64,000 bases of DNA from Nitrospirota bacterium (GTDB lineage Bacteria; Nitrospirota; Thermodesulfovibrionia; UBA6902), in assembly GCA_039715075.1 (NCBI GenBank), contig JBDLIC010000004.1:3041-67040 (forward strand), given 5' to 3'. Positions within the stretch are counted from its first letter, which is position 1; each line of letters opens with the position of its first letter. The translations under genes were made by a program, and so were the position numbers. The notes beneath the pieces were generated by a model. That model did not search any database. It was not told the origin of the DNA and was given only the letters and a program-made list of their open reading frames with translations. Shown one piece after another: positions 12,391 to 62,828 of the stretch.

Positions 12391-13299
12391 TTATGTGGAC
12401 TGTTCCCCGTTTTGAGCAAAACCTATTCTGGTGGTAAAGGGTACAATAATTTTGCCGCCGTGATTATCGTCTACCAGGACCTTTATTTCGTGAAGTCCTT
12501 CGTTTTCATGGCTGACTTTCCATTTGATAACTCCACTTGATGGATCGATGGTCATTCCGTCAGGGCTTTCCAGCAGCGAGTACGTAAGGAGATCGTTGTC
12601 CGGATCGGATGCGGAAACATGGTATTCGTAGGTATCCCCTGTAAAGGACGGTGATGATTCAGAAAAGACCGGTAATGAATTGTAAACACTGCTTTTTAAT
12701 ACAAGTTGCTTGCCGGATTCATCGCCGTCGTAAGGAGTAATACTGATTGAGATTTTGTCTCCTCTTTTAAGCGTGGCTTCGAGATAGTTTTCTTCACCTG
12801 CAAAATTACCATTCAGGGCCCATTCGTAACTATAGGAGACAATATCATTGTCAGCGTCCCTGGCCTTAACATTAATCTGCAATACTGAGTCGACCCTCGG
12901 GATTCTGGGTGACAATTTTGCATCTGCTATTGCGGGCGGTGAGTTTTTAATTGTTATTTCATTTGACATGAACTCCTGTTCATCTTTTTTCACGATTGCC
13001 TTAACCCTGTCCCCTTTATTAAGATCATTTGAACTGAAACGATAACCCTGAGCAGACTCAACTAATCCTTCGTTAATATACCAATGAATCTTTCCGCCGG
13101 TCAGTATGCTTCTTTCAGCCTTCAGAGTGAACTGAGCTTTTCTTGTGGCCTCATGAGGAACTATGGTGACCGGAGATGATATTGCCTGATCGTGTACATC
13201 CGTGTTCAGCGTAGATACCCTGCTGTTATCAGGACCATTACTGCAGCTGAGCAATATAAAAGACAAGAGCAGAATCAGGCATGCTCTGATAACAATCAT
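12391..13299 (-). CDS. lipoprotein with putative Ig/cadherin-like (He_PIG-type) repeats
   Basis: 302 aa; signal peptide with LLSC lipobox; DPDNDLLTYSLLESPDGMTIDPSSGVIKW-type repeat. Its start overlaps the PilY1 stop by 4 nt, so it is the last gene of the pilus operon. Confidence 0.6.
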   Translation of the reverse strand: MIVIRACLILLLSFILLSCSNGPDNSRVSTLNTDVHDQAISSPVTIVPHEATRKAQFTLKAERSILTGGKIHWYINEGLVESAQGYRFSSNDLNKGDRVKAIVKKDEQEFMSNEITIKNSPPAIADAKLSPRIPRVDSVLQINVKARDADNDIVSYSYEWALNGNFAGEENYLEATLKRGDKISISITPYDGDESGKQLVLKSSVYNSLPVFSESSPSFTGDTYEYHVSASDPDNDLLTYSLLESPDGMTIDPSSGVIKWKVSHENEGLHEIKVLVDDNHGGKIIVPFTTRIGFAQNGEQST

Positions 13300-16200
13300 T
13301 TATTTTCCTCTCCGACCCAGCCGGTAAGGCGGGAGTTGATTTTAACTGCCGGATCTGCTTCCAGTTCAGCAATGGCTCCGGTCGACTGCTGGGCAAATCC
13401 CTTGATTGTGCCGCTTGCTGTGATCTGGGCGCTTACAGAAGAAGGCATTCCTTTTCCGAGGTTCTTTACCCTGGCAACGGTCGATGATGGGTTTGCTTGT
13501 TCCTTCTGCTCCTTGAAAACGTACTTTGTAAAAGCTGTCCCTGTTTTATAAAAAACAGCATACAAATTACTCTCACCCTCAAATGCGCAGGTGTCTATTC
13601 CCGGGATATATGTTGTCCATGTTACAAGTCCCCCGAATACGAGTGGCGATGATGTAACTCGCTCTCCAGGGTGAGACAGGGACTCTCCGGTGAAATCAAT
13701 GGATTCACCAACTCTGTCAAAAAAGATGGACCATCCATCGCAACCGTATGATCCGGACAGCAGGCTTGGCCACGTAGATGTAGCGGCACTGGAGCAGTTG
13801 CCTGAAACTCCTGACACATTACCGTCTGTATCAACCGCTGAAACAGATGCATCCAGCAGGTCAGAATAGGATGTGGTGCAGTTTCCTCTCCAGCATTCGT
13901 CTCTCATTGCATAGAAACCTCCGGTATCTGTCTGGTTTTTGTCTCCGCTTCCGTAAAACTGGCCGGTACCGAAAAATACCCAGAGCTTTCCTCTGCTGTC
14001 CATTGAAGCAGATGGACTGGAAGTTATTCTCCTAACGACATCATAATTGCCTGACCCATCAATATCGTCAACATTTGCAAGTGTTGAAAGGACCCAATTA
14101 GCGGGGTCGCTCATTGTTCCTTCGCTAGTTGTGATCCTGCGCATGAGTGTATTCCATGTAGTCACTTGATTATTTGCGGGACCAGTTATGGTAGCGATGT
14201 TCTCGCCTATGTACATAATGTCATCATTAAAATCTGAATTAATGTCAAGAGTTATTGGGTGGGCCATAAACGCATTGCTGTTTCCGGTTGATATTTTCCA
14301 GAAGTTTGTATTCTCTACCCATGCAGCTATTTTACCGTCAGCACCGCCGGATATTTTAATGACAAATATATTGCCGTTCTGGTAGGTGGTCAGGTTCGAA
14401 CCTGAATTATAATCTGTAGCGCCGGATCCGAAGATTGCGTACCATGTAGTACCGATTTTTACAATTGTGGGCTTGGACATGGTAAGCCCAAGATCAGCGT
14501 GTGTGAATGACCATAACAGTTCAGGATTCAGCGGATCACTGATATCAATAGCAAAGTATTCAGGGGAAGCACTGTAGTCGGTGCTGGATCTTGTCCAGCT
14601 TATATCTTTTCCACCCATACGCATACCGCCGATAAGGATGGTACCCCAGCCTTCTGTATGAGTGCCGGAGTTAAATATTTTTACGTCTGTTACGTAGGGT
14701 TTTAAATCCGTATAGTAAACGTGTGTATAATCAGGGTCTGTAAGCCACTTCATATGTGGAAGAAGACTCCGTGGAATAAAGGCCCATAGTTCATCTCCAA
14801 GTGTATTGCTGCCCCCGGAATAGCACTTACCTACTGCATTAACATCAGCATAGAACTGGTGGTTGACAGAATCATAACAGCCTGCATTAAAGGCATGGAG
14901 CATACCGTCATTTGCCCCGACATATACGACCTGCCTTCTATTGATATTTACAGACCTGAATCTCGAATATGTTGTATCACTGTAGGCCAGATCAAAATTC
15001 TCGGCAGGGCGTGCTACTGTAACCGGGGTTGAATTAATGATATCACCAAGTTTCCATGTGTTTGTTGTGCCTGTAACAGGAGGAATTGTGATGGTTCTTT
15101 CTCTGTATCCAGTAAGATGATTTGCGTCAGTAACACCTGCAAGATCATCTCCCCGGACCCATTTTATGATATTTGTTACTTCTGTTGCATCCGAGTCTGA
15201 TGCCCTTAACCAGGGCTTCAGATCAGTACTGTTTGCTTCAATAAAATCAAGTTCTGTAACTCCATCTATAGTGGTAAAAATATTTCTGCTGGCAGGGGGT
15301 TTTGACCATAGAGATTCACCGCCCCTCCATATGGCCTTAATACTATCAAATTCTTCTGGTGTTGAAGGGCATGAATCAATTGCTCCGTCACCATTGGAAT
15401 CAGAACACTTATATACTTTAGTGCCTTCATTAGTTGTATATGTCATTGAAAGAATCTTGTCAGAGGACATGTCAAGAGCGTTATTGCCGTTTGTGTCTTC
15501 CCTTAGATTGCCGTATTTGTCTACAAATAGGGCCTGCATATACCCCAGCCAGTTCCGGTGCTCAATGCCTTCCATTTTTTCGGGCAGGAAATAGGCCTGA
15601 TAAACAGCACCTTCACCTTCACCGGATGTAGACAGAACACTTACCGCAGTCCCTGATGAAGCTCGTTTAAGCATATCGGTTATTGCCTCCAGGAGGGCTG
15701 CCTCAAGGTTGCTTCCGCCTGTGGCTTCGTAGAAGTTGTCAGGAATGCCGTTAGCGTTTTTGTCCCATTCATTGCATCCGTCAGCCCTTGATGCAAGTGG
15801 AGTTGCAATTGTGTCAGGACATGGGGATGCCGGCAGGGTCACAGCTCTGCTGTCTGCAGGATAAGCAGCCCTGTCATAGGGCCAGGTATTGGAATCAAAG
15901 TCCTCAAAGTCCCCGAACATGGCGACCTGCTGCAGTGAGTTTCTTCCTCCTGCATCTTCTTCTCCAAACGCAGTATAAACCGTGTATGTAATGATATTCT
16001 GTTTTTCGTCTATGTCTGAGCGGATGTCATTTATAAAATTTTCTCTTGCCGGTATGACCGGGTCAATCTTCCCGTTCCAGTCACCGTCAGATATAAGAAG
16101 AACAAAATTTTTACGGCATCCTATCATAGTGCCGTTATCACACATTGGGTCCTGGAGTGATCCCTGGCCACCGAGATATGCATTATTGTCTTCGTAAGAA

Positions 16201-17168
16201 TTGGAGTTTATCTGGCGGTAATAATCATATGCTTCTCTCAGTGCCTCTCCTGGAGTGCTTCCGTGATAGGGTGCTTCACCCTCAAGTGCAGTTAAAAATG
16301 AAGACATATTGGCCCCTTCAATCCCAACTTTCATTTCACCCAGTCTCGCCTCTGAAGCATTCTTACCGTTCGAAAAAACCATAAGCCCAAAGCGGGGTGA
16401 ATCATCATCCCATGTGCCGTTATAATCTTTATCCGACAGACGGTGGATAATTCCGCGTCTCTCATTTTCAGGTACATCTATTTGTACATCAGCACCCGAG
16501 AGAGTGCCTACTGCACAGGTACCGAGGCCGTAGTTACTGATGGTCAAAGTATGGGCAAGATTTGGAAAGGTACCACCGCTGAGTTCAAATGTGCAGTCAA
16601 GAGTGCTGTCCGAATAGGTCCGTCGTCCGCCTTCTCCCCTTAATGTATGTGCATTACCCTGGGTTGAAGCGGACTTTCCGCCCATGAGAACTTTTCTCAT
16701 GAGGTCTATCCTGCTCATTGTGGCCCAGTTAAGCAGATTTCCGGATATACAACCAGCTTTACCGATTTTGTTGTCGGTATCGTTGCACGCGGTTTGTTCT
16801 TCAAATTTGTTTGTGCCGTATCTATAGTACTTATCGATTTTAAAATAGCCGTAATATTTAAGTGAAGAGTCATAGTCATATGATGATGTGCCACTGCCGC
16901 ACTCTGCCACTTTGGTGCTGTATGAAAAATTAAGCAGGTCACAGCCTGTATATGCCGGGAACTGCATGCTTCCGGAGACGTCCAGAACTATAAGAATGTT
17001 CGGTTCGACAATATTAATTGTGAATGCAGGGTAGGCCGTATAATCGACCATTTCGGGCTCTGTTATTACAGCATTACCCGGTAAAGGTATGGCGCTCAAA
17101 AAAGTTATAATAAAAACCAGGAATAAATGTTTGATATTAATATTCATCATATACCTCCTAATGGGCAA
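13296..17168 (-). CDS. pilY1: type IV pilus tip adhesin / biogenesis protein PilY1 (N-terminal vWA + C-terminal PilY1 domain)
   Basis: 1290 aa; signal peptide; vWA MIDAS ILIVLDVSGSM; C-terminal PilY1 signatures VVYVGANDGMLHAF and GDELWAFIP. Confidence 0.85.
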   Translation of the reverse strand: MPIRRYMMNINIKHLFLVFIITFLSAIPLPGNAVITEPEMVDYTAYPAFTINIVEPNILIVLDVSGSMQFPAYTGCDLLNFSYSTKVAECGSGTSSYDYDSSLKYYGYFKIDKYYRYGTNKFEEQTACNDTDNKIGKAGCISGNLLNWATMSRIDLMRKVLMGGKSASTQGNAHTLRGEGGRRTYSDSTLDCTFELSGGTFPNLAHTLTISNYGLGTCAVGTLSGADVQIDVPENERRGIIHRLSDKDYNGTWDDDSPRFGLMVFSNGKNASEARLGEMKVGIEGANMSSFLTALEGEAPYHGSTPGEALREAYDYYRQINSNSYEDNNAYLGGQGSLQDPMCDNGTMIGCRKNFVLLISDGDWNGKIDPVIPARENFINDIRSDIDEKQNIITYTVYTAFGEEDAGGRNSLQQVAMFGDFEDFDSNTWPYDRAAYPADSRAVTLPASPCPDTIATPLASRADGCNEWDKNANGIPDNFYEATGGSNLEAALLEAITDMLKRASSGTAVSVLSTSGEGEGAVYQAYFLPEKMEGIEHRNWLGYMQALFVDKYGNLREDTNGNNALDMSSDKILSMTYTTNEGTKVYKCSDSNGDGAIDSCPSTPEEFDSIKAIWRGGESLWSKPPASRNIFTTIDGVTELDFIEANSTDLKPWLRASDSDATEVTNIIKWVRGDDLAGVTDANHLTGYRERTITIPPVTGTTNTWKLGDIINSTPVTVARPAENFDLAYSDTTYSRFRSVNINRRQVVYVGANDGMLHAFNAGCYDSVNHQFYADVNAVGKCYSGGSNTLGDELWAFIPRSLLPHMKWLTDPDYTHVYYTDLKPYVTDVKIFNSGTHTEGWGTILIGGMRMGGKDISWTRSSTDYSASPEYFAIDISDPLNPELLWSFTHADLGLTMSKPTIVKIGTTWYAIFGSGATDYNSGSNLTTYQNGNIFVIKISGGADGKIAAWVENTNFWKISTGNSNAFMAHPITLDINSDFNDDIMYIGENIATITGPANNQVTTWNTLMRRITTSEGTMSDPANWVLSTLANVDDIDGSGNYDVVRRITSSPSASMDSRGKLWVFFGTGQFYGSGDKNQTDTGGFYAMRDECWRGNCTTSYSDLLDASVSAVDTDGNVSGVSGNCSSAATSTWPSLLSGSYGCDGWSIFFDRVGESIDFTGESLSHPGERVTSSPLVFGGLVTWTTYIPGIDTCAFEGESNLYAVFYKTGTAFTKYVFKEQKEQANPSSTVARVKNLGKGMPSSVSAQITASGTIKGFAQQSTGAIAELEADPAVKINSRLTGWVGEENK

Positions 17169-17490
17169 ACATTGAAACTACAATTTTATTGACGCAGCCA
17201 TTTCCTTCATATAGTTCAACATGTGTTGCTGCTGACAGGTCTTCAAAGGGTATTTCTTTTGTTTTGAAATAGAAAGATATGCCTGTACAAAAATCGAATC
17301 TCATGTTGTCTACAATAATGTAAGACTTCGTAATATCATTCATTTTCCCTTCGTAAACATTGTCAGTGACATTGGCGTCTGAGGCGTAGGTTTCAACAGT
17401 TGCTGCCATATATGTAAAAGAAAACATTATCATCACTATGAATGAGATTAAAACTGTTTTTCTGATTTTCACTTTCATTATTCCCTCCAT
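17158..17490 (-). CDS. small secreted hypothetical protein in pilus operon
   Basis: 110 aa with N-terminal signal/TM segment; translationally coupled between pilX and pilY1; no recognisable domain. Confidence 0.5.
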   Translation of the reverse strand: MEGIMKVKIRKTVLISFIVMIMFSFTYMAATVETYASDANVTDNVYEGKMNDITKSYIIVDNMRFDFCTGISFYFKTKEIPFEDLSAATHVELYEGNGCVNKIVVSMFAH

Positions 17491-18032
17491 TATTTATCAA
17501 CATATATATAAAAAGATCCTGCTGTTGTTTGTGCGCCTATCCCGGGTATAGATGCTTCTGAATTAACTCTGAAGTAGATTGCGCCTTTACCGTCACACCT
17601 GCCCACCCCTTCATAGCAGTTATGGGTCATTATTGCAAAACCTTCACTCTTTGCAGCGCTGACCTTGTCTATGTCAATAGAAACAGTTGTCCCGTCAACT
17701 ACATATGTCATATCAGGGCTTGCATCGGTATTATCTGTATCGAATGAGTCACCTCTCAGTTCATCTATGAGGTTGGAAATGTCGGTAGATGTGCCTAAAT
17801 ATGCAGTATACTCAGCTGGAGCTGTGAGCATTATCATATCGCCAACAGGTTTAGGTATATGTTTGATGCCAGAGTCTGCCAGTGCCTCATTTTCTTCAAT
17901 GATCCTGATATTACCTGACAGAATGTTTTCAATGGAACTCGTTCCCATTGCTGCCATACCGATAACGGTCAGTACCATTAGTAACAAAATAGCAGTAACG
18001 AGGATATAGCCGTTTTCCTGTTCTCTCATCAT
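17490..18032 (-). CDS. pilX: type IV pilus minor pilin PilX-like
   Basis: 180 aa; N-terminus GYILVTAILLLMVLTVIG typical of PilX_N. Confidence 0.7.
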   Translation of the reverse strand: MMREQENGYILVTAILLLMVLTVIGMAAMGTSSIENILSGNIRIIEENEALADSGIKHIPKPVGDMIMLTAPAEYTAYLGTSTDISNLIDELRGDSFDTDNTDASPDMTYVVDGTTVSIDIDKVSAAKSEGFAIMTHNCYEGVGRCDGKGAIYFRVNSEASIPGIGAQTTAGSFYIYVDK

Positions 18033-18034
18033 AA

Positions 18035-19084
18035 TTATAGGACCCCCTCGAGATTTTTAACGAATACTATCGATTGCTGCCACCTGCGTTTGAAATCATC
18101 TCCGGGCTGCGGGATAATGTTATTTTCTATTGCTGCCGGAGGGTTTCCCATACCTCTGAAACTCAGGTCACTAGTCTGGGACATTGTAAGGATATTTATT
18201 CTGACTGCCCTTATCCGTGAATAGTTTGCAGGAGCTACTATGCTGGTGAAATCAGTATCATCCAGCAGATTAGCACTTCCGTCAATTTCTCCAAATGGGG
18301 CTACTACATCGACTGCATATGAAAACTGGAGGTCTTCTATATTTTCAGCGATAATCTGATTAAAGGGTCCAAGTGGTGAGCCTGTACAAGCGGGGAGCAC
18401 AACTCCTAAATCTATTTTATGTAGATTTGCATCAGCATCTACACAGAATGTCGTGTCCTGAAGCAGGTAAACAGGTCTGCCTTTATCACAAAAAGAATCT
18501 CCGTCTGTATCCTCTAACCAATGATTCTGCCCGGTTGTTGTTACGAATGTCACAGCAGTACCTGTAAAGCTGGCAACAGTTGCAAACTCAATGCCGCCAA
18601 GCAGCAGAGTGCTGCCTGCAACAGGACCTACCAGTGGATCATCCAGAATAATATCAGCCCCCCCTGAATCTAGCTCCAGTTTTTGGTCATCTGAATTATT
18701 TCCGTCACAATCCTCATTAGTTCCAGCATTCATACCAGTAGGCCAGAGCTCACCGATACGGCGGGCAGTTATCACGGTAATTGCGTCCGGCCCACCTCCG
18801 AAATCACTAGGGACTATTGTCGAATTAAACCCGAATAGCGTGGCGGGGATTTCGGTAGACATATTAAAAGAAAAGCTGAAAGGGGAACCCTTTATGGTAC
18901 GTTTTATAAGGTCGTGTGCCACTTTTACCTGAGTATTCATTTCTGTTACGTCTTCCTGTGCAGTGTATGAGCGGTTTTGGACTACATATGTTGCAGATGC
19001 AGCGGCAATAAGCATCATACTGATGACTACTGCGACCATTGTTTCAATAAGAGTAAACCCTCTGTCATTTCTTTCTGTAATCAT
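18035..19084 (-). CDS. pilW: type IV pilus assembly protein PilW
   Basis: 349 aa; prepilin-type N-terminal cleavage/methylation motif GFTLIETMVA. Confidence 0.8.
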   Translation of the reverse strand: MITERNDRGFTLIETMVAVVISMMLIAAASATYVVQNRSYTAQEDVTEMNTQVKVAHDLIKRTIKGSPFSFSFNMSTEIPATLFGFNSTIVPSDFGGGPDAITVITARRIGELWPTGMNAGTNEDCDGNNSDDQKLELDSGGADIILDDPLVGPVAGSTLLLGGIEFATVASFTGTAVTFVTTTGQNHWLEDTDGDSFCDKGRPVYLLQDTTFCVDADANLHKIDLGVVLPACTGSPLGPFNQIIAENIEDLQFSYAVDVVAPFGEIDGSANLLDDTDFTSIVAPANYSRIRAVRINILTMSQTSDLSFRGMGNPPAAIENNIIPQPGDDFKRRWQQSIVFVKNLEGVL

Positions 19085-19599
19085 GGGTATTGTATCCTCG
19101 GTGCATTGAATTCTACGGAATGGTTTATTCCATTCTTGTCAGCCCAGCATGTCCTTGTCGTTACCATGCTGAAAGGGGCTGTTGTATTTATGGTGCAAGG
19201 CGGGGCTGCGCCGGCCGGGCCGCATAATGAATTTGCAGCGGGACCAAGTCCCCTGCAGCTGCCGCTGGCCCACCATGACCTTGTGAAGGTGACTCCGCCG
19301 GATATAGCGCTGAAACTGGCTTGATCACCACCAAAACCTGGAAGTGAATAAGGCGTGTCTGTCCCTGCGCCCAATGCAACCATTGTATTATATGGAGTAG
19401 CAAGTATCTGGTCCAGGTATTCGGTATTAAGAGTTGTTGCGATCCTCATTTCCCTGCTAGATGCGTTGCCTGTGACAGCAAAGTACTGCATGCCCATCAC
19501 TCCAAGCACTCCGATAAGCAGGACTGTCATGGCCACCATTACTTCTATCAATGTGAACCCGTTCCTGTTTCTCATCTTACCTCCGTCCAGGCGCAGCAT
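19081..19599 (-). CDS. pilV: type IV pilus modification protein PilV
   Basis: 172 aa; GFTLIEVMVAMTVL N-terminal prepilin motif. Confidence 0.8.
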   Translation of the reverse strand: MLRLDGGKMRNRNGFTLIEVMVAMTVLLIGVLGVMGMQYFAVTGNASSREMRIATTLNTEYLDQILATPYNTMVALGAGTDTPYSLPGFGGDQASFSAISGGVTFTRSWWASGSCRGLGPAANSLCGPAGAAPPCTINTTAPFSMVTTRTCWADKNGINHSVEFNAPRIQYP

Positions 19600-20252
19600 C
19601 TTCTCCGGGCAGAAGCACAGTCAACAACAGTCGCTGGAGCCATGTCTCCTGTTTGACCATCCCACTTCCAGAGTTCCAGTTTTCCTGTCATGTAACTAAG
19701 TTTTACCATATAGCTGTTATTATTGACTGGATGTGTTATCAATGCATAACCCGGTGGTTCATCTATCGTGCCGTCAGCATTAAAAGTCTGGGCCAAAGGA
19801 TTGAGCACCCCGAAGGCAACCGGATTTCCCGTCCCCATGCAGGCAGGACATGAACCAGGAGCATTGCTTGGTGCAAGGGCTGGCGCAGATCCAAATATGA
19901 CTCTGCCTCCATACCTGTTCTGGAGGTTAATTACTTTGGTGGGTAATACTCCGTATCCAGCGAGAATTCCGGTGATAGCTGCGTCTTCAGCCGGGTCGGC
20001 ACCAATCGAATAAGTATTTGCACCAGGGTTAAACAGAATTGTGTACGATTGCCCTTCTTTTATTGCCATTGTCCTTACGAGTTTCATTTCCTGCATAAGT
20101 TCGACCGCTGCTTCCCTGACCATACTGCTGGCATTAAAATTATTATACGCGGGAACTGCGAAGGCGGAAAGGACTGCAATAAGAGCTACAACGCTCATAA
20201 ACTCGATTGTGCTGAAACCTTTTTCATTTTTGATTGTCAGTTTTTTCATCAT
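19572..20252 (-). CDS. GspH/FimT-family minor (pseudo)pilin
   Basis: Prepilin motif GFSTIEFM lies 11 aa after the internal start MMKKLTIKNEK. The ORF-track start at 20369 would give a 50-aa leader, so the start is placed at 20252. First gene of the minor-pilin operon. Confidence 0.65.
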   Translation of the reverse strand: MMKKLTIKNEKGFSTIEFMSVVALIAVLSAFAVPAYNNFNASSMVREAAVELMQEMKLVRTMAIKEGQSYTILFNPGANTYSIGADPAEDAAITGILAGYGVLPTKVINLQNRYGGRVIFGSAPALAPSNAPGSCPACMGTGNPVAFGVLNPLAQTFNADGTIDEPPGYALITHPVNNNSYMVKLSYMTGKLELWKWDGQTGDMAPATVVDCASARRRCCAWTEVR

Positions 20253-20470
20253 GCCATTAAAGAAAGCAAGTTTAATACCAGAAATAAAATGGTTGTTTAT
20301 CCGGAAGTTATCTGAATTAAGATATCCTGTTATGAAACCTGTTACACAGGGATATGTAGAAGGTTTCATGATTTTTCAATGATTCAGAGTAAATTGAAAC
20401 CAGAGAATTGCATTATGTTTTGCAGGTTATATTGTTGTATACTTATTAGAAAAATTTAAGGGAGAAATAA

Positions 20471-41493: not shown

Positions 41494-41668
41494 TGTCTGT
41501 ATATAAACTTGGTTTATCGATTCGTCATTCCCGAAATCCTTAATCGGGAATCTATTCTGTTAAGCAAGTTCTGGATGCCCGATTACTGACTTCGGGCATG
41601 ACAAAAATAAAAAACAGCAGTTTATAATTAGTTGTTTTTCAGGACGGGGCTCCAGGAGTTTTTATTTA

Positions 41669-42187
41669 TTACAGGATCCCATCTCTTATCCTTAACGACA
41701 GGACTCCAGCGTTCCTCTTTTTCAGCTGTATCTGTGACCTTTTCTTTAACTGGACTCTTTTTAAGGGACGTATCCTTCTTTTTAAGTTCAAAGGGGATAT
41801 GCTTCTTTTTTGTATCCGGTTTTCTTTTACCAGGTATAACCAGTGCGGTAGATTCATGTCTTTATTCGTTGTCTGAAGATCTTTTTCGGATGTTTCCTTA
41901 TTTGTATTATTCAGGGTCTTCAGGGTAATACTGATTCGTCTGTTTTGAGGGTCTGCGGGATTTTCCTTTATCAGAGGGTCTGTGTCTGCATAACCCGCAA
42001 CGCGAATAATGCGGTCAGGGGCAAGACCATTGGCTTCGAGTCTCCGTCTCGATGAAGATGCACGCTCAGTGGAGAGCTCCCAGTTGCTGTAGTCCTTTCC
42101 CGAATAGGGGATTGAATCTGTATGCCCTTCGATAATTACCTTATTGGGAAGCTTGTTTATATTGCCGCTGATTACCTTATTGATATT
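41669..42187 (-). pseudogene. 5'-truncated MotB/OmpA-like gene remnant
   Basis: The minus frame opens right after a TGA at 42188..42190 and reads NKVIIEGHTDSIPYSGKDYSNWELSTERASSSRR...NRRISITL then a K/R-rich tail. There is no start codon before the OmpA core. Abuts tRNA-Leu. Confidence 0.5.
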
Positions 42188-42291
42188 TCATCTTTTGATA
42201 AGTGTATGAGAATCATCTGCCCTTGATTATTATTTCCCGGTTTATTATCGTAGTAGCTACGAATAGATGATTGATTATTCATGAAATTCGA

Positions 42292-42377
42292 GCCGGAGTG
42301 GTGAAATGGCAGACGCGTCGGACTCAAAATCCGATATCCTCCGGGATGTGTGGGTTCGAATCCCACCTCCGGCACCA
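42292..42377 (+). tRNA. tRNA-Leu (anticodon CAA)
   Basis: 86 nt; GCCGGAG acceptor stem; long variable arm; anticodon loop CUCAAAA; TPsiC arm GGTTCGAATCC; terminal CCA encoded. Confidence 0.88.
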
Positions 42378-42514
42378 TAAAAACTGCTGAATTTTTAAGG
42401 TGTTAATCGATCTTTCAAGGCCCTTAAGCAGAGGGGGAGCTCGGATATGAATCACCCGAAAGATTTGATATACTCACCGAAATTTACCTCTGATAAATAA
42501 ATCTTAAGCAGGCT

Positions 42515-42847
42515 GTGAATGTCGGTATTCATTCAGAAAGGATTCCCTGTAACGTGAATGCAACCATCACGTCTGAAGGCAATATCTTTGATGGTGTTAT
42601 AGAAAACGTCTCTGAGGGAGGAATGGAGTATTTAATAACTTCCTCAATTATGTCATCTGGAAACTTTACTCCCAAGAAAATGATAAAACTTAATTTCCGA
42701 ATCCCTTCAGGAGAATCACTTGATCTTGATTGTGAAGTGGAATGGTTTTTAAAGACCCCGCAGGATGAAAATAAATCTCTGATACTGGGAATGAAGATTA
42801 TTGATCCGCCTGAGATATACAGGAAGCTGGTCAATAGAGAATGCTGA
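42515..42847 (+). CDS. PilZ domain protein (c-di-GMP binding)
   Basis: 110 aa; RIPCNVN ... ENVSEGG, i.e. RxxxR...(D/N)xSxGG. Confidence 0.65.
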   Translation: MNVGIHSERIPCNVNATITSEGNIFDGVIENVSEGGMEYLITSSIMSSGNFTPKKMIKLNFRIPSGESLDLDCEVEWFLKTPQDENKSLILGMKIIDPPEIYRKLVNREC

Positions 42848-42870
42848 TGACTGTATTGAATTAGATCAGA

Positions 42871-43191
42871 TTATTCCAGCGGAGCTGCAAGCAATTCTTT
42901 AAGATGAAATGCGTTTTTGACCGCAAACCCACCGTGGCAGTTATTAAACATCGCATATGTTTTTTTTGCCTTTCTGTTTAATCTGCGGACCGATCCGGCA
43001 AATTCTTTCAGCTCGCTGTCAGAATAAAGGTAGGAATATCTGAGAGATGTTTCCACTCCTTTTTTAAGCCAGTTCTGAGTGTTTCTGCCGTGGAACCTGA
43101 AGTATGCAATTCCGCTCGTGACCTCAGGATAGAATTTGAGGCGGTCCCTGGCTGTTTTAACATTGGGAGAATAAAACTCACCTCTCTCAAA
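42871..43191 (-). pseudogene. C-terminal remnant of a DUF72 (YecE/UPF0759) gene
   Basis: The open frame after the TGA at 43192..43194 reads ...YFRFHGRNTQNWLKKGVETSLRYSYLYSDSELKEFAGSV...MFNNCHGGFAVKNAF. This matches only the last ~105 aa of the ~260-aa family and has no start. Confidence 0.55.
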
Positions 43192-43272
43192 TCAGTGCCT
43201 CTTGATATAACAATTTAATATCAGTTACTATTTTAAACTACTAAAAAATCTTTATTGTAAGGGACAATAATA

Positions 43273-43806
43273 ATGAAAAGAAAAATTCTTTTGACCATAG
43301 GTGTTGTTTTTTTGGCTATCACGCTTTCTGCGGTTCTGTTTAATGAATATGCTGAAGGGACAAATCCTTACAGTTCCGGAAGGATGATAGGCCAGCCGGC
43401 ACCTGATCTTTCTCTGAAGGACCTGTCAGGCAATGAGGTATCGATAGCATCTTTTAAAGGAAAAACAGTTTTGTTGAATTTCTGGGCCACATGGTGCCCA
43501 TATTGCAGAAAAGAGAGGACCGAACTGAACACCCTTCATGATGAATATAAGGACAAAGGTCTGGTGATTGTTTCGGTATCAATCGACAGGTCTATGGAAA
43601 AACTGAAGCGCTATATGAAAGAGATGCCTGCTGAATTTATTGTCCTGTCCGATACAGAGGGTTCGTCAGCCGGATCATATGAAATTATGGGTCTGCCGAC
43701 TTCTTATATGATAGACAGCAAGGGAATAGTAAGGCACAAGAATACGGGGTACAAAAAATGGACCAGCTCTTCTTCAAGGAAAATCATTAATGACCTGGTC
43801 AATTAA
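43273..43806 (+). CDS. TlpA/ResA-like thiol:disulfide oxidoreductase
   Basis: 177 aa; signal anchor; thioredoxin fold with WATWCPYCR. Confidence 0.85.
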   Translation: MKRKILLTIGVVFLAITLSAVLFNEYAEGTNPYSSGRMIGQPAPDLSLKDLSGNEVSIASFKGKTVLLNFWATWCPYCRKERTELNTLHDEYKDKGLVIVSVSIDRSMEKLKRYMKEMPAEFIVLSDTEGSSAGSYEIMGLPTSYMIDSKGIVRHKNTGYKKWTSSSSRKIINDLVN

Positions 43807-54511: not shown

Positions 54512-55210
54512 GTGCATATTCCTCCCTATCTTGTTAATGAACATTATGATGACCGCTATTTCGATGTAGTAAATGCAATCGAAGAAGCGAAGCATATCTA
54601 TTTTCGGGGTGCAGGCATCATTGATATTCTTTCTGCCGCAGGGCAGGGGCGGAAAGAATTCAGAATAGGTGAAACCGGCTTTGGCGCAGGCCGTTTACTG
54701 ATTGCCCTCATGGATTTCCTGGACAATTGCGGCATCACGGACATAGAGATTACCTACAATTCCGTTGAACTGCATCCGGTCACTTTTGAGCGAATGGCAT
54801 CCATTCTCAACGGATTCAGAACAGAGGCTGGTCCGCTTATTGATCAGCTTGTCCGGACCTACAGCAGCATCGACATATCCAAACCGGGGTGGCACCGGAT
54901 AAAACTCACCCGGCCTTTTGGAATCGTGTCCCTGAATCTCTGGATTGGTGAGGCCCTCGAAATGGTCCATGCACTAACAGTTCCCTGTGACGCATGGTTC
55001 CTGGATGGTCATGGACCGAAGAAAAATCCTGCCATGTGGCGGCATGAGCTTCTTATTGCGATAGGAGAAAAAACAGTGACAGGTGGAACCTTTGCCACCT
55101 TTACTGTTGCCGGAGCTGTTCGACGGGGACTCATAGCTGCGGGGTTTTCTGTTGAGCAGTGTCCTGGTATTGGCGTAAAAAAATCAGCGCTCAAAGGGCT
55201 GAAACTATAA
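54512..55210 (+). CDS. MnmC2-like SAM-dependent methyltransferase (DUF752) for tRNA mnm5s2U synthesis
   Basis: 232 aa; GTG start; GETGFGAGRLLIALMDF and FLDGHGPKKNPAMW motifs of the MnmC N-terminal domain. Confidence 0.75.
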   Translation: MHIPPYLVNEHYDDRYFDVVNAIEEAKHIYFRGAGIIDILSAAGQGRKEFRIGETGFGAGRLLIALMDFLDNCGITDIEITYNSVELHPVTFERMASILNGFRTEAGPLIDQLVRTYSSIDISKPGWHRIKLTRPFGIVSLNLWIGEALEMVHALTVPCDAWFLDGHGPKKNPAMWRHELLIAIGEKTVTGGTFATFTVAGAVRRGLIAAGFSVEQCPGIGVKKSALKGLKL

Positions 55211-55359
55211 CGCGGGCGCCTGAACCAAAAAATTAAATGCAAGTAAATAATTATTACTTTCACTAAAAACAAATCAGTTAAAACCTTCTATTTCTTTCAT
55301 AAATATAGCCTATTGCCAATCGTCCGCTTTTCATTGTATGATGAAAGTAAGAGGCACAG

Positions 55360-56166
55360 ATGATGCTAAGAATGATCATTATTGTATTTATCCCGTTCTT
55401 CCTTTTCCCCGGAGGAGCTTATCCTGCCCTTGACGACAATGGAGGTGTTACTGCCATGGTAAAACCATTGATTGAAAATAATAAAAGTATACCGCCGATT
55501 GATACGGTAATACCCGATAAGATAGAAACAGCAACGTTTGCAATGGGGTGATTCTGGGGCCCTGACTCCCAGTTCGGGAGTATGAACGGAGTTATTCGGA
55601 CTCGTGTCGGCTATGCAGGCGGGACATCGGACAACCCTACATACCGGATGCTTGAAGATCATGCAGAGGCCTTCCAGGTTGATTATGATCCGTCCCTGAT
55701 ATCATATGAGGAACTGGTGGGGATGTTCTGGGAGGGCCACAGTCCTACAATCAGGCCATGGTCTTCACAATACAGACCGGCTATTTTTTATCACGATGAC
55801 GGACAGAAAAGGGCGGCGGAAGCGTCAAAAGAAGAGATTGCCTCAAACATGAACAGAAGAATCATCACAGAAATACTCCCGTTCAAAGAGTTCTATCTTG
55901 CCAAAGACTACCACCAGAAACATAACCTCCGCACAAACCCGAGAATCCTGGATGAACTGACAGGAATTTATCCTGATGTTGAGAGTCTCATAGCTTCTTC
56001 GGCAGCAGCCCGTATAAATGGATACCTCGGAGGAAACGGCACTTGCGAGCAGCTCCAGTCAGAAATAAAAAGCCTCGGTCTCTCTGTATCAGGAAGTAAT
56101 AGCCTACTCAAAACCGTCTGCGGGAGAAATGCGAAGATGTATTGTCCGACTAACAGGTGTAATTAA
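55360..56166 (+). CDS. msrA: peptide methionine sulfoxide reductase MsrA, candidate selenoprotein (in-frame UGA at catalytic position)
   Basis: Single frame 55360..56166 interrupted only by TGA at 55549..55551. Context ATFAMG-[TGA]-FWGPDSQFGS matches the MsrA active site GCFWG with UGA replacing the Cys codon. The rest is typical MsrA (VGYAGG...YHQ). N-terminal signal peptide. Confidence 0.7.
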
Positions 56167-56353
56167 AAGATGGGTAACCGGACCATTTACATCACCGCAG
56201 ATGATCTTCACCTTTTAAAAACTACGATTGACGAATGACGAGGTTATTACTACTTCGTAATTCGTCAATCGCTATTCGTCAATTTCTTTTCCTGTTGTTT
56301 AAAGGATTAGTTACCTTCTGTCTGCGATATAAGGATAGTGATAGGAGAATAAA

Positions 56354-57037
56354 TTATAACAACGACCCCTGGTCCAGATTTCCGGAAGAACCTTTAGCAG
56401 GAGTTTTTGATTTGGCCTTCCTGGCACCTGTTCCGCTGCCTTCAATAAAAATCGAGACCGTCTCTGTCAGGGTCTTTTCGAGGGGGAAGAGTTTCGGGTC
56501 AGAGAGCCAGCTCATGCATGCTGTCAGAAAAGAGACCTCAAGATGCTTGACCATCAATTCAACAGATATATCTCTTCTGATATCTCCCCCCTGTTGGCCG
56601 AGTTTTATTATCATGGTGAATATGTCTTCAAACCCGCTTTTAAGGTTTTTGCTGTATGATGGGTTGGCGATATTCTTGAACCAGAAACTCAGATATATTT
56701 TATAGATGTCCTGTTTTGATTTGAACAATTCGGAGGCTGCTTTTGTGAAAGTTTTTTCCAGCCTTTTTTTCGTATCAGGGAGCAGCTGGATCATCTGGAG
56801 GAGCTGAAGTTTGAGCTCTTTTACATTGTTCTGCCAGTATTCACTTATGATAGCTTCCTTGACAGGGAAGTAGTTGTAAAGGGTGGCCTTTGAGATATCA
56901 ACGTCCTCCGAGATCTGCTCCATAGAGGTTGAATCAAAACCATTTTTGCGAAATAAATACATTGCAATCTTTATGATCTTCTGTTTGGTTTCCAGCTTCT
57001 TTCTCTCGCGTCTATTTAATGTAGAATTTGATTCCAT
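56354..57037 (-). CDS. TetR/AcrR family transcriptional regulator
   Basis: 227 aa; HTH TSMEQISEDVDISKATLYNYF. Confidence 0.9.
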   Translation of the reverse strand: MESNSTLNRRERKKLETKQKIIKIAMYLFRKNGFDSTSMEQISEDVDISKATLYNYFPVKEAIISEYWQNNVKELKLQLLQMIQLLPDTKKRLEKTFTKAASELFKSKQDIYKIYLSFWFKNIANPSYSKNLKSGFEDIFTMIIKLGQQGGDIRRDISVELMVKHLEVSFLTACMSWLSDPKLFPLEKTLTETVSIFIEGSGTGARKAKSKTPAKGSSGNLDQGSLL

Positions 57038-60309: not shown

Positions 60310-61239
60310 TCATACCTTATTGTTTCTGCCTAATGAACAAATCATGGATCCGGCAACAACGATAAAAGCTCCTGCAATACTCAGGCTGTTAAGGTGTTCC
60401 GGTTCGATAAAGCGGGGGAACAGGGCTGAGCATATCTTCATTGCCACGACCGTAATAACAGGAGTCGTAGCCACTATCATACTCACCCGGGAGGCTTCCA
60501 GATGGTCCAGCGCTTCCGCAAAGCTTCCATAGGCAATAAAAGTATTTATAGAACAAAAACCGAGCAGCAGGAACCCCGGGCCGTCCAGATTAAGAACAAT
60601 GGATGGTCTGGCAAAGGGAAAGAACAGAAGTGCTCCTGAAATAAAAATAAAGAGCATGACTGTTTCTGACCGAAATGACTTAAGCAGCTGTTTTTGTGCC
60701 AGTGCATAGACTGACCATAAAAGTGCGGCTGCTAATATAAAAAGAACACCTGTTGTAAATTCCCCCAGCCGGGAAAACAGTTCATTGATGCGATCGTTAA
60801 AAAAAAGTGCCAGCCCGATAAGCAGCACCAGAAAACCTGCCCATTGCCCTGTACTGAATCTCTCCCTGAATATAAGAAGGCTTCCAAACAGCAAAAAAAC
60901 AGTTGCCATCTGGATAACTATTGTTGCCGTGCTCGGAGGAAGGTGATCAAGCCCAACTGCGTAAAAAATATAGTTGCTGCATAGTCCGGCACTGGCGACA
61001 AGAAGAAGGGAAATAACAGATTTCCTCAATTTATTTAAGGGAGGAATACTGTTTCTCCTGATTACAAAAGCAGACATCAGCACCGCAGCTCCAAAGAAAC
61101 GGTACCATGTAACAGTAAATGCATCCATATAATCAAGCAGGACCTTTAAAGCAACAGGCAGTATGCCCCACATCAATGCTGTAACCATTGAAAGGGCAAG
61201 CCCGAGACGCCACCGTCCTGTTGTAACATGTACATTCAT
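60310..61239 (-). CDS. DMT superfamily transporter (EamA family)
   Basis: 309 aa; 10 TM; two EamA repeats. Confidence 0.85.
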   Translation of the reverse strand: MNVHVTTGRWRLGLALSMVTALMWGILPVALKVLLDYMDAFTVTWYRFFGAAVLMSAFVIRRNSIPPLNKLRKSVISLLLVASAGLCSNYIFYAVGLDHLPPSTATIVIQMATVFLLFGSLLIFRERFSTGQWAGFLVLLIGLALFFNDRINELFSRLGEFTTGVLFILAAALLWSVYALAQKQLLKSFRSETVMLFIFISGALLFFPFARPSIVLNLDGPGFLLLGFCSINTFIAYGSFAEALDHLEASRVSMIVATTPVITVVAMKICSALFPRFIEPEHLNSLSIAGAFIVVAGSMICSLGRNNKV

Positions 61240-61727
61240 AGGGTATCACTCATTACGTTCCCCATTCTTTTAATTCCTTCCTCAATATTTGCAGGAGAGG
61301 CATTGGAGAAATTAAGCCGCATGGTATTTTTGCCCGAGCTGTCAGGGAAGAATTCCTGCCCTGGAACAAAAGCAACATTATGGTCAATACATATTGAAAA
61401 CAGCTGGTTAGCATCACACTGTTCAGGTAATTTCACCCAAAGGAACATACCCCCTCCCGGGCGGTTCCATGTAACGGAAGAGGGGAAATATTGTTCCATC
61501 GCAGCGATCATGCAGTCGCGGCGGTATTTGTACTCTTTCTTCAGAAGCAGTATGTGTTCATCATAGCAGCCGCTTTCGAGATATTCGTTGATTACATACT
61601 GTCCAAAGGTATTCGTATGCAGATCAGTGCCCTGTTTGATGACTGAAAGCTTCGCGATCATTTCTTCATCCGCTGCAATGAACGCTACTCGGAAGCCAGG
61701 GGCAATAGTTTTCGAAAAAGTGCTCAT
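61236..61727 (-). pseudogene. C-terminal half of a class I/II (MocR/AAT-like) aminotransferase
   Basis: 163 aa starting in the middle of the fold (SFSKTIAPGFRVAFIAADEEMIAKL ... RPGGGMFLWVKLPE ... MRLNFS). The N-terminal ~230 aa are absent and only 145 bp of non-coding sequence lie upstream. Confidence 0.6.
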
Positions 61728-61872: not shown

Positions 61873-62079
61873 TTATATATAATCCTCCTTTATGGGATAC
61901 CATGCATCTATCGCCTTTGCAGGTTTCGATAGAATTTTTGCACTGTGCTCCTGGTTCGGCATAATAACAACGCCGTCACCTGCTTTCAATATCTTTGTTT
62001 CACTCTCGAGAGTAAATTCGATTTCACCTTCTATAACATACGTTATCTGCTCATGCGGATGCTTGTGAGAAGGAATCAT
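61873..62079 (-). CDS. cupin-2 domain protein (short, possibly N-truncated)
   Basis: 68 aa; HKHPHEQITYVIEG and GDGVVIMPNQEHS cupin motifs; start overlaps the upstream methyltransferase stop (ATGA). Confidence 0.55.
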   Translation of the reverse strand: MIPSHKHPHEQITYVIEGEIEFTLESETKILKAGDGVVIMPNQEHSAKILSKPAKAIDAWYPIKEDYI

Positions 62080-62828
62080 AAGACCTCGGGAATGACTGCA
62101 GTTGATACCCTTTTCCCGCCATAAACAGCAAACACCCCGTATTTATAATAACAATCTACCTCAACAAACCCAATGTCCCTTAAAGCATTTAACTGGCTGT
62201 CAAGAGTATCTGGCTTGTTTTCATCATAGGCCTTATACCTCCTTGTCACATCTTTGAAGAGGTCCCTGTCGATGTTGAACTGCTTTTTTTGCTCTTCCAT
62301 CCATTCATTCCACATTTGCAGGTACCACTGCTCAAGGGTATCTGTCGGCGGCAGTATAACATCGATATTCAGGAAGTAACCTCCTTTATGCAAATGCGAA
62401 TGAATCTTATTGAAAAATAACATCTTCTCATCTGTTGTCAAATGATGTATTGCCAGAGAGGAGACGATGAAATCAAAGCTGCTCCGGATAATATCCTGCC
62501 CCATTACCTCCTGAAAGCTGGCCCTGATATAATCTATATTTTTGTAATCCTTCAAACGCTCCTTTGCCTTGACGAGCATATCATCAGAAGCGTCAACTAA
62601 AGTTGCTGAAACGTTCCCGTCAATTTCAAGAATTCTCTCAATGAGAATACCGTCACCGCATCCAAGGTCGAGGAGTTCTTTTTTATTATTGCCGGAAATA
62701 AAGTATCTGTAAAAAGATGCCATGATCCCGATCATCCTCTGCCTCTCAACAATGAATATATCAGCGTTGTCCCTGTATTCCTTCGCGAATTCGTTGTCTG
62801 CCCATCTTGTCTTATTGAATTCCGTCAT
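62076..62828 (-). CDS. class I SAM-dependent methyltransferase
   Basis: 250 aa; LDLGCGDGIL motif I. Confidence 0.8.
   Translation of the reverse strand: MTEFNKTRWADNEFAKEYRDNADIFIVERQRMIGIMASFYRYFISGNNKKELLDLGCGDGILIERILEIDGNVSATLVDASDDMLVKAKERLKDYKNIDYIRASFQEVMGQDIIRSSFDFIVSSLAIHHLTTDEKMLFFNKIHSHLHKGGYFLNIDVILPPTDTLEQWYLQMWNEWMEEQKKQFNIDRDLFKDVTRRYKAYDENKPDTLDSQLNALRDIGFVEVDCYYKYGVFAVYGGKRVSTAVIPEVL

Follow-up and report, generated by a model that had tools for sequence, protein, structure and literature searches.

An in-frame UGA at the catalytic cysteine codon of a Nitrospirota msrA gene, followed by a family-conserved hairpin, points to a selenocysteine-containing enzyme

A 64,000-nucleotide stretch of contig JBDLIC010000004.1, from the assembly GCA_039715075.1 of a Nitrospirota bacterium (hereafter the window), carries at 55360..56166 a gene of the methionine sulfoxide reductase A (MsrA) family whose reading frame is interrupted by TGA at the codon of the catalytic cysteine. 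Is this UGA read as selenocysteine (Sec), or does it mark a broken gene? The original prediction, made from the letters of the window, had favored a Sec-containing MsrA with a hairpin resembling a selenocysteine insertion sequence (SECIS) downstream of the UGA, and had kept a recent inactivating mutation as the alternative. We find that the locus is very probably one intact Sec-MsrA gene with a family-conserved, bona fide-looking SECIS; Sec insertion itself we infer from these features.

A single MsrA reading frame with UGA at the catalytic position

Two open reading frames (ORFs), 55360..55551 (63 codons) and 55582..56166 (194 codons), lie in one shared frame at an offset of 222 nucleotides (nt), and the sole stop separating them is the TGA at 55549..55551, just as had been proposed. 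Reading through this triplet yields 268 codons, with the junction IETATFAMG-(UGA)-FWGPDSQFGSMNGVIRTRVGYAGG and the end at TAA 56164..56166, and the frame contains no disruption besides the TGA. The elements of the gene considered in this section are:

55313..55342, plus strand: sigma-70-like promoter candidate TTGCCA-18-TATGAT, predicted by a consensus scan with 10/12 matches
55348..55354, plus strand: Shine-Dalgarno-like TAAGAGG, 5 nt before the ATG and identical in the related contigs L001 and L002
55360..56166, plus strand: the whole msrA coding sequence of 268 codons and a final TAA, its codon 64 being the UGA predicted to be read as Sec
55528..55929, plus strand: MsrA catalytic (PMSR) domain, residues 57-190, by PF01625 coverage
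55549..55551, plus strand: predicted UGA Sec codon, which specifies residue 64 within the active-site sequence G-U-F-W-G

The read-through product is an MsrA-family protein, for which we predict methionine-S-sulfoxide reductase function. It matches the Pfam family PF01625 (PMSR) with an E-value of 1.1e-41 and 143 bits, against a cut-off of 23.7, and the TIGR00401 msrA model with 134.2 bits against a cut-off of 108.1. In the motif numbering G63-U64-F65-W66-G67, the UGA falls exactly on the family's catalytic cysteine, which bears out the original placement. The translation also holds the motifs VGYAGG, DHAEAF and QYRPAIF, which we take to correspond to the Tyr82, Glu94 and Tyr134 sites of E. 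coli MsrA, and E103 and Y138 are invariant in a 75-sequence MsrA alignment.

The start of the gene is well defined, because a stop lies three codons upstream. The promoter suggested earlier is indeed present as a site, and in the 92%-identical contigs L001 and L002 the element is kept as TTGCCT...TAAAAT; sigma-70-like sites are no more frequent in this region than in shuffled sequence, so that its role as the msrA promoter is no more than plausible. Upstream of it, between a Methyltransf_30 gene (54512..55210) and the promoter-like site, the window has about 85 nt of additional AT-rich sequence (55225..55310) compared with L001 and L002.

Conservation of the UGA codon and selection on both halves of the gene

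The comparison with Cys- and Sec-type orthologs, which the original prediction had named as a check, was carried out on one genome per species (GTDB representatives) using a profile of the protein part downstream of the TGA, a search that is blind to the identity of the catalytic codon. The set comprises the 80 best loci and three further contigs; the codon could be located in 77 loci, and 7 gave no motif match. Among the 77 located codons, 74 are TGA, two are TGC and one is TGT. These relatives span at least six phyla and come from Nitrospirota/Thermodesulfovibrionia, Chloroflexota (Anaerolineae and Dehalococcoidia), Desulfobacterota, Actinobacteria, Synergistaceae, Spirochaetales, NC10 and others. 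The same split with the same TGA is found in the metagenomic contigs L001 and L002 (92% protein identity) and L003 (58%). Compared with L001, the ratio of nonsynonymous to synonymous substitution rates (dN/dS) is 0.27 over the 63 codons upstream of the TGA and 0.08 over the 204 codons downstream, and both halves of msrA are therefore maintained as coding sequence under purifying selection.

These results bear directly on the possibility that a recent TGC/TGT-to-TGA mutation killed a Cys-MsrA and that the two ORFs are remnants of a nonsense pseudogene. Such a gene would be split by gene callers into 63-amino-acid (aa) and 194-aa ORFs, as this one is, and would need no Sec machinery, none of which is seen in the window. 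It would not share its TGA with 74 of 77 relatives from several phyla, nor show purifying selection on either side when compared with a relative that itself bears the TGA, and it would leave unexplained both the otherwise undisrupted frame and a SECIS-compliant hairpin held in place by constrained synonymous sites (see below). A recent inactivating mutation is for practical purposes excluded, and we give the pseudogene almost no credence.

The hairpin downstream of the UGA and its fit to the bacterial SECIS model

The RNA element proposed to redirect the ribosome at this UGA is:

55565..55581, plus strand: bacterial SECIS core hairpin (predicted), with a 6-bp stem ACUCCC/GGGAGU and the apical loop AGUUC

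The hairpin starts 13 nt after the TGA, with a UGA-to-loop spacing of 19 nt, and ACUCCC-AGUUC-GGGAGU is part of the minimum-free-energy fold. In the published model of the bacterial SECIS (bSECIS), the apical loop has 3-9 nt and the upper stem 4-16 bp, a G is present at the first or second loop position and is usually followed by G or U, the UGA-to-loop distance is 16-37 nt, and the energy is at most -7.5 kcal/mol (PMC13188914). The msrA hairpin agrees with all four criteria, having a 5-nt loop, in which G is the second nucleotide and U the third, on a 6-bp stem, a spacing of 19 nt and an energy of -8.6 kcal/mol, and the SECIS-like spacing and G/U-containing loop claimed for it from the sequence hold up. 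Such agreement is rare by chance: over both strands of the window, 25 of 2785 TGA triplets (0.9%) pass the same criteria, and 14 reach -8.6 kcal/mol. Because the hairpin lies in conserved codons, we also drew 5000 synonymous versions of the same peptide with this genome's codon usage; 87 of them (1.7%) pass, and 54 (1.1%) reach -8.6 kcal/mol. A search of Rfam returned no family matching the hairpin, its gathering-threshold version giving only a tRNA-Leu and its E-value version one chance match.

Constraint on the hairpin across relatives

Codon statistics over 72 distinct Sec-type sequences reveal constraint at the RNA level. Counting from the UGA, codon +6 is TCC or GCC in 72/72 Sec forms, and codon +7 is CGG, CAG, AGG or TGG, so that the loop G is present in 72/72. 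Glycine +9 is encoded by GGG in 65 of the 72, and serine +10 always by AGY and never by TCN, whereas all four bases are found, in free variation, at the flanking four-fold sites (Gly +3, Pro +4, Gly +13, Val +14 and Arg +16). As a control we used nine Cys forms whose encoded peptide is identical or similar, three from the genome scan and six usable ones among eight metagenome stretches with the same peptide motif; just 3/9 of these have the loop G (Fisher p 2.6e-7). Over the six stem pairs, compensatory changes are found from UA to GC in 9 sequences and from CG to UA in 3, giving 12 double-change cells compared with 3.4 +/- 1.5 in shuffles, a value reached by 0/500 of them, and the stem pairs at 82% in register as opposed to 23-53% when slid. 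The family-wide element can be written as UGA-UUC-UGG-GGN-CCN-GAY-UCC-CRG-UUY-GGG-AGY, an unusually well conserved coding-region SECIS that is usable as a search model.

Some relatives have exchanged the Sec codon. Four Cys forms (L084, L088, L089 and L091) keep the hairpin, as does a Ser form (L092:1501-2304) whose codon, TCA, is one step from TGA; these hairpins look like fossil SECIS elements after a recent Sec-to-Cys or Sec-to-Ser replacement. The Ser form is expected to lack catalytic activity; alternatively, it may reflect a sequencing variant. Sec is thus occasionally abandoned in this family, and this lends some support to the idea that the window gene is itself a fossil, that is, a true Sec-MsrA inherited by a lineage that has since lost selABCD, so that translation stops at the UGA and the gene decays. 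The failure to see Sec machinery in the window agrees with it too. A decaying gene should not, however, retain TGA, hairpin, start, Shine-Dalgarno site and full downstream frame all intact; a downstream dN/dS of 0.08 relative to L001 is unexpected after loss of function; and selB and selC are reported in Nitrospirae, where selC is embedded in or overlaps selB (PMC13188914). We regard a fossil gene as improbable, if a little less so than a pseudogene by recent mutation.

Genetic code and the meaning of tryptophan in public gene calls

A further explanation would have the UGA decoded as an ordinary residue (Trp, Gly or Cys), through stop reassignment or near-cognate suppression. Public gene calls appear to speak for it, since in 25/120 of the best database homologues the catalytic residue is called as Trp, and the DNA of the one that we checked (P0008 = L093:169-930) has TGA there. 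In the window, TGA is an ordinary stop that ends 16 of the 51 Pfam-supported genes; the standard code therefore applies, without genome-wide reassignment, and any recoding of UGA is local. An enzyme with Trp or Gly in place of its catalytic nucleophile would moreover be dead, and plain read-through does not account for the conservation of a hairpin that has a G-U loop and lies at SECIS spacing. The Trp calls are best explained as annotation artefacts, with the gene callers probably having used a TGA=Trp code for the contigs concerned, and decoding of the UGA as an ordinary residue seems to us hardly tenable.

The database entries show a second defect as well. In 13/120 of the best homologues the active-site stretch is absent, as in C-terminal ORFs truncated after the TGA (five such entries were read); the homologues with either defect fall among proteins P0002-P0119. 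Sec-MsrA genes are thus commonly mis-annotated in public data, either split, here into 63-aa and 194-aa products, or given Trp, and the practical value of our result lies mainly in annotation.

Weighing the selenocysteine reading

Taken with the nearest structure, which is the selenoprotein CoMsrA (see the comparison below), the conservation of the TGA, the SECIS-type hairpin, the fixed synonymous sites and the compensatory changes uphold the original interpretation of a Sec-MsrA. Several observations weigh against it. Within the 64-kb window we found none of selA, selB, selC and selD, and among its TGA-split genes no second selenoprotein candidate, the others being antisense frames or adjacent genes. 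The bulk fold energy of the hairpin region is ordinary (z 0.1 to -0.7). Covariation in the stem is modest, because most of its columns are nearly invariant, and RNAalifold on the 72 sequences did not recover the hairpin, returning a different weak consensus of -2.3 kcal/mol. In a strict version of the energy threshold that allows no bulges, 20/71 family members miss -7.5 kcal/mol, most of them lying at -6 to -7.3. Finally, since the hairpin is also kept in the four Cys forms, its presence alone is no proof of current use. In favor of the Sec reading, a relative in a Desulfomonile tiedjei metagenome-assembled genome (MAG) carries tRNA-SeC (anticodon TCA) at L052:15423-15520, 5.5 kb downstream of its TGA-msrA; the ORFs around this tRNA are not sel genes and resemble aminopeptidase N, Ogt, a radical SAM protein, YsxC and RNase E/G.

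On balance, we consider Sec at residue 64 very probable, and the following course of events is suggested by the established mechanism in bacteria. When a ribosome reaches the UGA at 55549..55551, the hairpin at 55565..55581 would act as a bacterial SECIS and recruit SelB-GTP carrying Sec-tRNA(Sec), and Sec would be inserted into G-U-F-W-G in place of termination. By the chemistry of the family, Sec64 would then attack methionine-S-sulfoxide in oxidised proteins, releasing methionine, and the resulting selenenic acid would be recycled through a selenenylsulfide. With this gene, the Nitrospirota MAG can be counted among the probable users of selenium.

A predicted export signal and candidate relay cysteines

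Two parts of the protein set it apart from CoMsrA, an N-terminal hydrophobic segment and a C-terminal region with additional cysteines:

55360..55428, plus strand: predicted N-terminal signal peptide or membrane anchor, MMLRMIIIVFIPFFLFPGGAYPA, residues 1-23
55930..56094, plus strand: probable C-terminal helical domain of selenoprotein-MsrA type, which carries Cys229 (56044..56046)
56119..56160, plus strand: Cys-rich C-terminal tail, VCGRNAKMYCPTNRC, with Cys254, Cys262 and Cys267

The hydrophobic N-terminus MMLRMIIIVFIPFFLFPGGAYPA is real, with a maximum Kyte-Doolittle mean over 13 residues of 2.76, and residues 1-23 look like a Sec-type signal peptide or anchor; the signal peptide and export put forward in the original prediction remain predictions. 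A linker with a conserved IPPID motif follows. With a hydrophobic stretch defined as a 13-residue Kyte-Doolittle mean of at least 2.0, and with the relatives' start codons chosen heuristically, 58/73 distinct Sec relatives have one at the N-terminus; 12 have a lipobox, and a minority has a short, CoMsrA-like N-terminus. The window also encodes 3-deoxy-D-manno-octulosonate (KDO)-biosynthesis-like families (CTP_transf_3, DAHP_synth_1, SIS+CBS and HAD phosphatase), together with OmpA-family and type IV pilus proteins, and is therefore read as coming from a diderm cell with a periplasm.

Among relatives of this protein we also noted four loci in Anaerolineae MAGs (L018, L021, L025 and L028) that encode fusions of about 390-420 aa, arranged as N-terminal anchor, MsrB (SelR) and MsrA with UGA, and a separate MsrB gene adjoins Sec-msrA in 7 other loci.

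At the other end of the protein there are four extra cysteines: Cys229, which falls in the probable helical domain, then Cys254, and finally the two of a terminal Cys262-x4-Cys267. The full multi-Cys pattern recurs in L001 and in the Thermodesulfovibrionia MAGs L004 and L006. Among the 74 Sec forms, 11 are multi-Cys, 13 have a tail cysteine only and 45 have none. E. coli MsrA has C-terminal resolving cysteines, and by analogy Cys229, Cys254, Cys262 and Cys267 are candidate resolving or relay thiols. The Pfam family PF20939 is present in many close MsrA homologues.

With less assurance than for Sec insertion, we may extend the proposed course of events. The N-terminal segment could take the enzyme across the inner membrane, or anchor it there, so that it might repair envelope proteins of the diderm Nitrospirota cell, and the four cysteines could serve as resolving or relay thiols that are re-reduced by a thioredoxin-like reductant. 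That the window gene belongs to a widespread, undescribed extracytoplasmic branch of Sec-MsrA, bearing a signal, lipoprotein or anchor segment and the IPPID linker, and within it to a Nitrospirota subgroup with its own C-terminal cysteine relay, is a tentative proposal to which we give somewhat less than an even chance. Among the surveys of selenoproteomes that we searched, none mentions signal peptides or extra cysteines for Sec-MsrA (PMC13188914, PMC1794560, PMC2398784).

Three further points count against the proposed reading as a whole. Export and the relay of cysteines are predictions from features of the sequence; the PF20939 match to the helical domain (residues 208-242; 22.3 bits, E 1.1e-4) falls just below the cut-off of 23.7; and the analysis of neighboring genes at 74 loci found no conserved CcdA/DsbD or thioredoxin reductant, yielding antisense artefacts, generic histidine kinases and the MsrB genes at 7 loci.

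A TlpA/ResA-like thioredoxin-fold ORF (AhpC-TSA/Redoxin) that combines an N-terminal membrane anchor with a WCPYC motif lies in the window at 43273..43806 on the plus strand. It is the nearest anchored thioredoxin-fold protein in the window, 11.5 kb from msrA and unlinked to it in relatives, and is a candidate extracytoplasmic reductant by its sequence features.

Implications

Our analysis does not overturn current understanding. The type of enzyme is already known; the likely export signal and the extra cysteines are its sole unusual traits. What the gene suggests is a multi-cysteine variant of Sec-MsrA that may be periplasmic, and of this variant the only characterised bacterial Sec-MsrA, being 1-Cys and without a signal segment, is therefore unrepresentative. 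If this proves true, the relay would link periplasmic selenenic-acid chemistry to a thiol-disulfide reductant, and anaerobes would possess a selenium-based repair of oxidised envelope proteins.

Other features of the window

Downstream of msrA, between it and a convergent tetR-family gene (56354..57037, minus strand), there is one further element:

56225..56271, no strand assigned: 20-bp inverted repeat, CGATTGACGAATGACGAGGT / ACTTCGTAATTCGTCAATCG

Its arms are 90% complementary, and it folds with -32.2 kcal/mol (z -5.5; 0/200 shuffles as stable). The repeat was not called by a simple terminator scan. A bidirectional terminator is its probable role, with a TetR operator palindrome as a further possibility. 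A third copy of ATTCGTCAAT lies beside it at 56274..56283. An ORF at 56235..56705 on the plus strand was considered as a gene and rejected as spurious, as it has no family match and overlaps the Pfam-supported TetR gene on the opposite strand.

The window is chromosomal, with housekeeping families that by Pfam resemble pyrB, pyrR, hisA/hisF, kdsB, pyrG, eno and others, and its PyrG is 100% identical to the protein MEN8262077.1 from a Nitrospirota MAG. Its only tRNA is Leu-CAA (42292..42377), around which about 1.7 kb (41500..43270) is without a long ORF, the sole sizeable one being 42515..42847 (110 aa). On the minus strand, 12391..20369 holds a type IV pilus minor-pilin/tip cluster comprising a 1290-aa PilY1-like protein, PilX-like and PilW-like proteins, prepilins with the N-methyl motif and an Ig-domain protein. 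Also on the minus strand, a 163-aa ORF (61236..61727) aligns with the class I/II aminotransferase model, which has 361 positions, over positions 215-360 only and resembles an aminotransferase's C-terminal half; no N-terminal half lies upstream, although the ORFs 61873..62079 and 62076..62828 were outside the Pfam scan, and it is possibly a truncated aminotransferase remnant.

Comparison with known systems

Cys-type Msr proteins that work outside the cytoplasm include Neisseria PilB/MsrAB and Streptococcus pneumoniae MsrAB2, which acts with CcdA and Etrx. What the window protein would share with them is MsrA activity located beyond the cytoplasm by means of an N-terminal signal or anchor, and some of its Sec relatives are likewise MsrB-MsrA fusions. 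In contrast, these enzymes are cysteine-based, have a fused or neighboring thioredoxin-like reductant and belong to other MsrA subfamilies; PDB 3BQE-type matches to the window MsrA have an E-value of 1e-17 only.

The hairpin resembles the SECIS elements of the E. coli fdhF/fdnG type in being a coding-region stem-loop just 3' of the UGA, with G and then U in the apical loop and the right spacing. It differs from them in its unrelated sequence and in its short upper stem (6 bp) with no bulged U evident, and binding of SelB to it is only predicted.

The closest structural counterpart is MsrA of Clostridium (Alkaliphilus) oremlandii, CoMsrA (PMC4333827, PMC4479559). In a sequence search of the PDB, the best matches are its entries 4LWJ-M, 4U66, 7C13 and 4W8C (E 2e-55), compared with 2.6e-30 for E. 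coli MsrA, and phmmer aligns query residues 53-239 with CoMsrA 5-191 of 209. CoMsrA is a native selenoprotein whose Sec16 makes it 20-fold more active than the Cys version; its C-terminal helical domain is unique and indispensable to the active site, and it is a 1-Cys type without other cysteine, recycled by glutaredoxin and not by thioredoxin (PMC4333827). The two proteins are alike in the stretch G-U/C-F-W-G-P-D-(S/A)-Q-F-G-S, in being native Sec-type enzymes (for the window protein, by prediction) and probably in a two-domain layout whose helical C-terminal part is missing from the other solved MsrAs. They differ in that CoMsrA has 209 aa with Sec at position 16, whereas the window protein has 268 codons with Sec64 and an N-terminal extension of 48 residues, and in that the window protein, with cysteines 229, 254, 262 and 267, is not 1-Cys. 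The N-terminus of CoMsrA is too short to hold a signal segment, which suggests that CoMsrA is cytoplasmic.

At the level of the gene, the closest parallel is the Sec-MsrA family of the selenoproteome surveys, which is established among prokaryotic selenoproteins and marked by the motif GUFWG/H (PMC13188914), exemplified by Syntrophobacter fumaroxidans (PMC1794560) and by the Global Ocean Sampling (GOS) metagenomes (PMC2398784). Because it is listed there as established, the kind of gene described here is already known, and where the original prediction had spoken of Sec-MsrA in a few anaerobes, the literature instead describes a recognised, widespread family (PMC13188914, PMC1794560). The surveyed members have the same UGA at the catalytic cysteine of a PF01625/COG0225 protein, followed by a bSECIS, in anaerobes including Deltaproteobacteria. 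Nothing essential differs, and the window gene adds a Nitrospirota member to this family.

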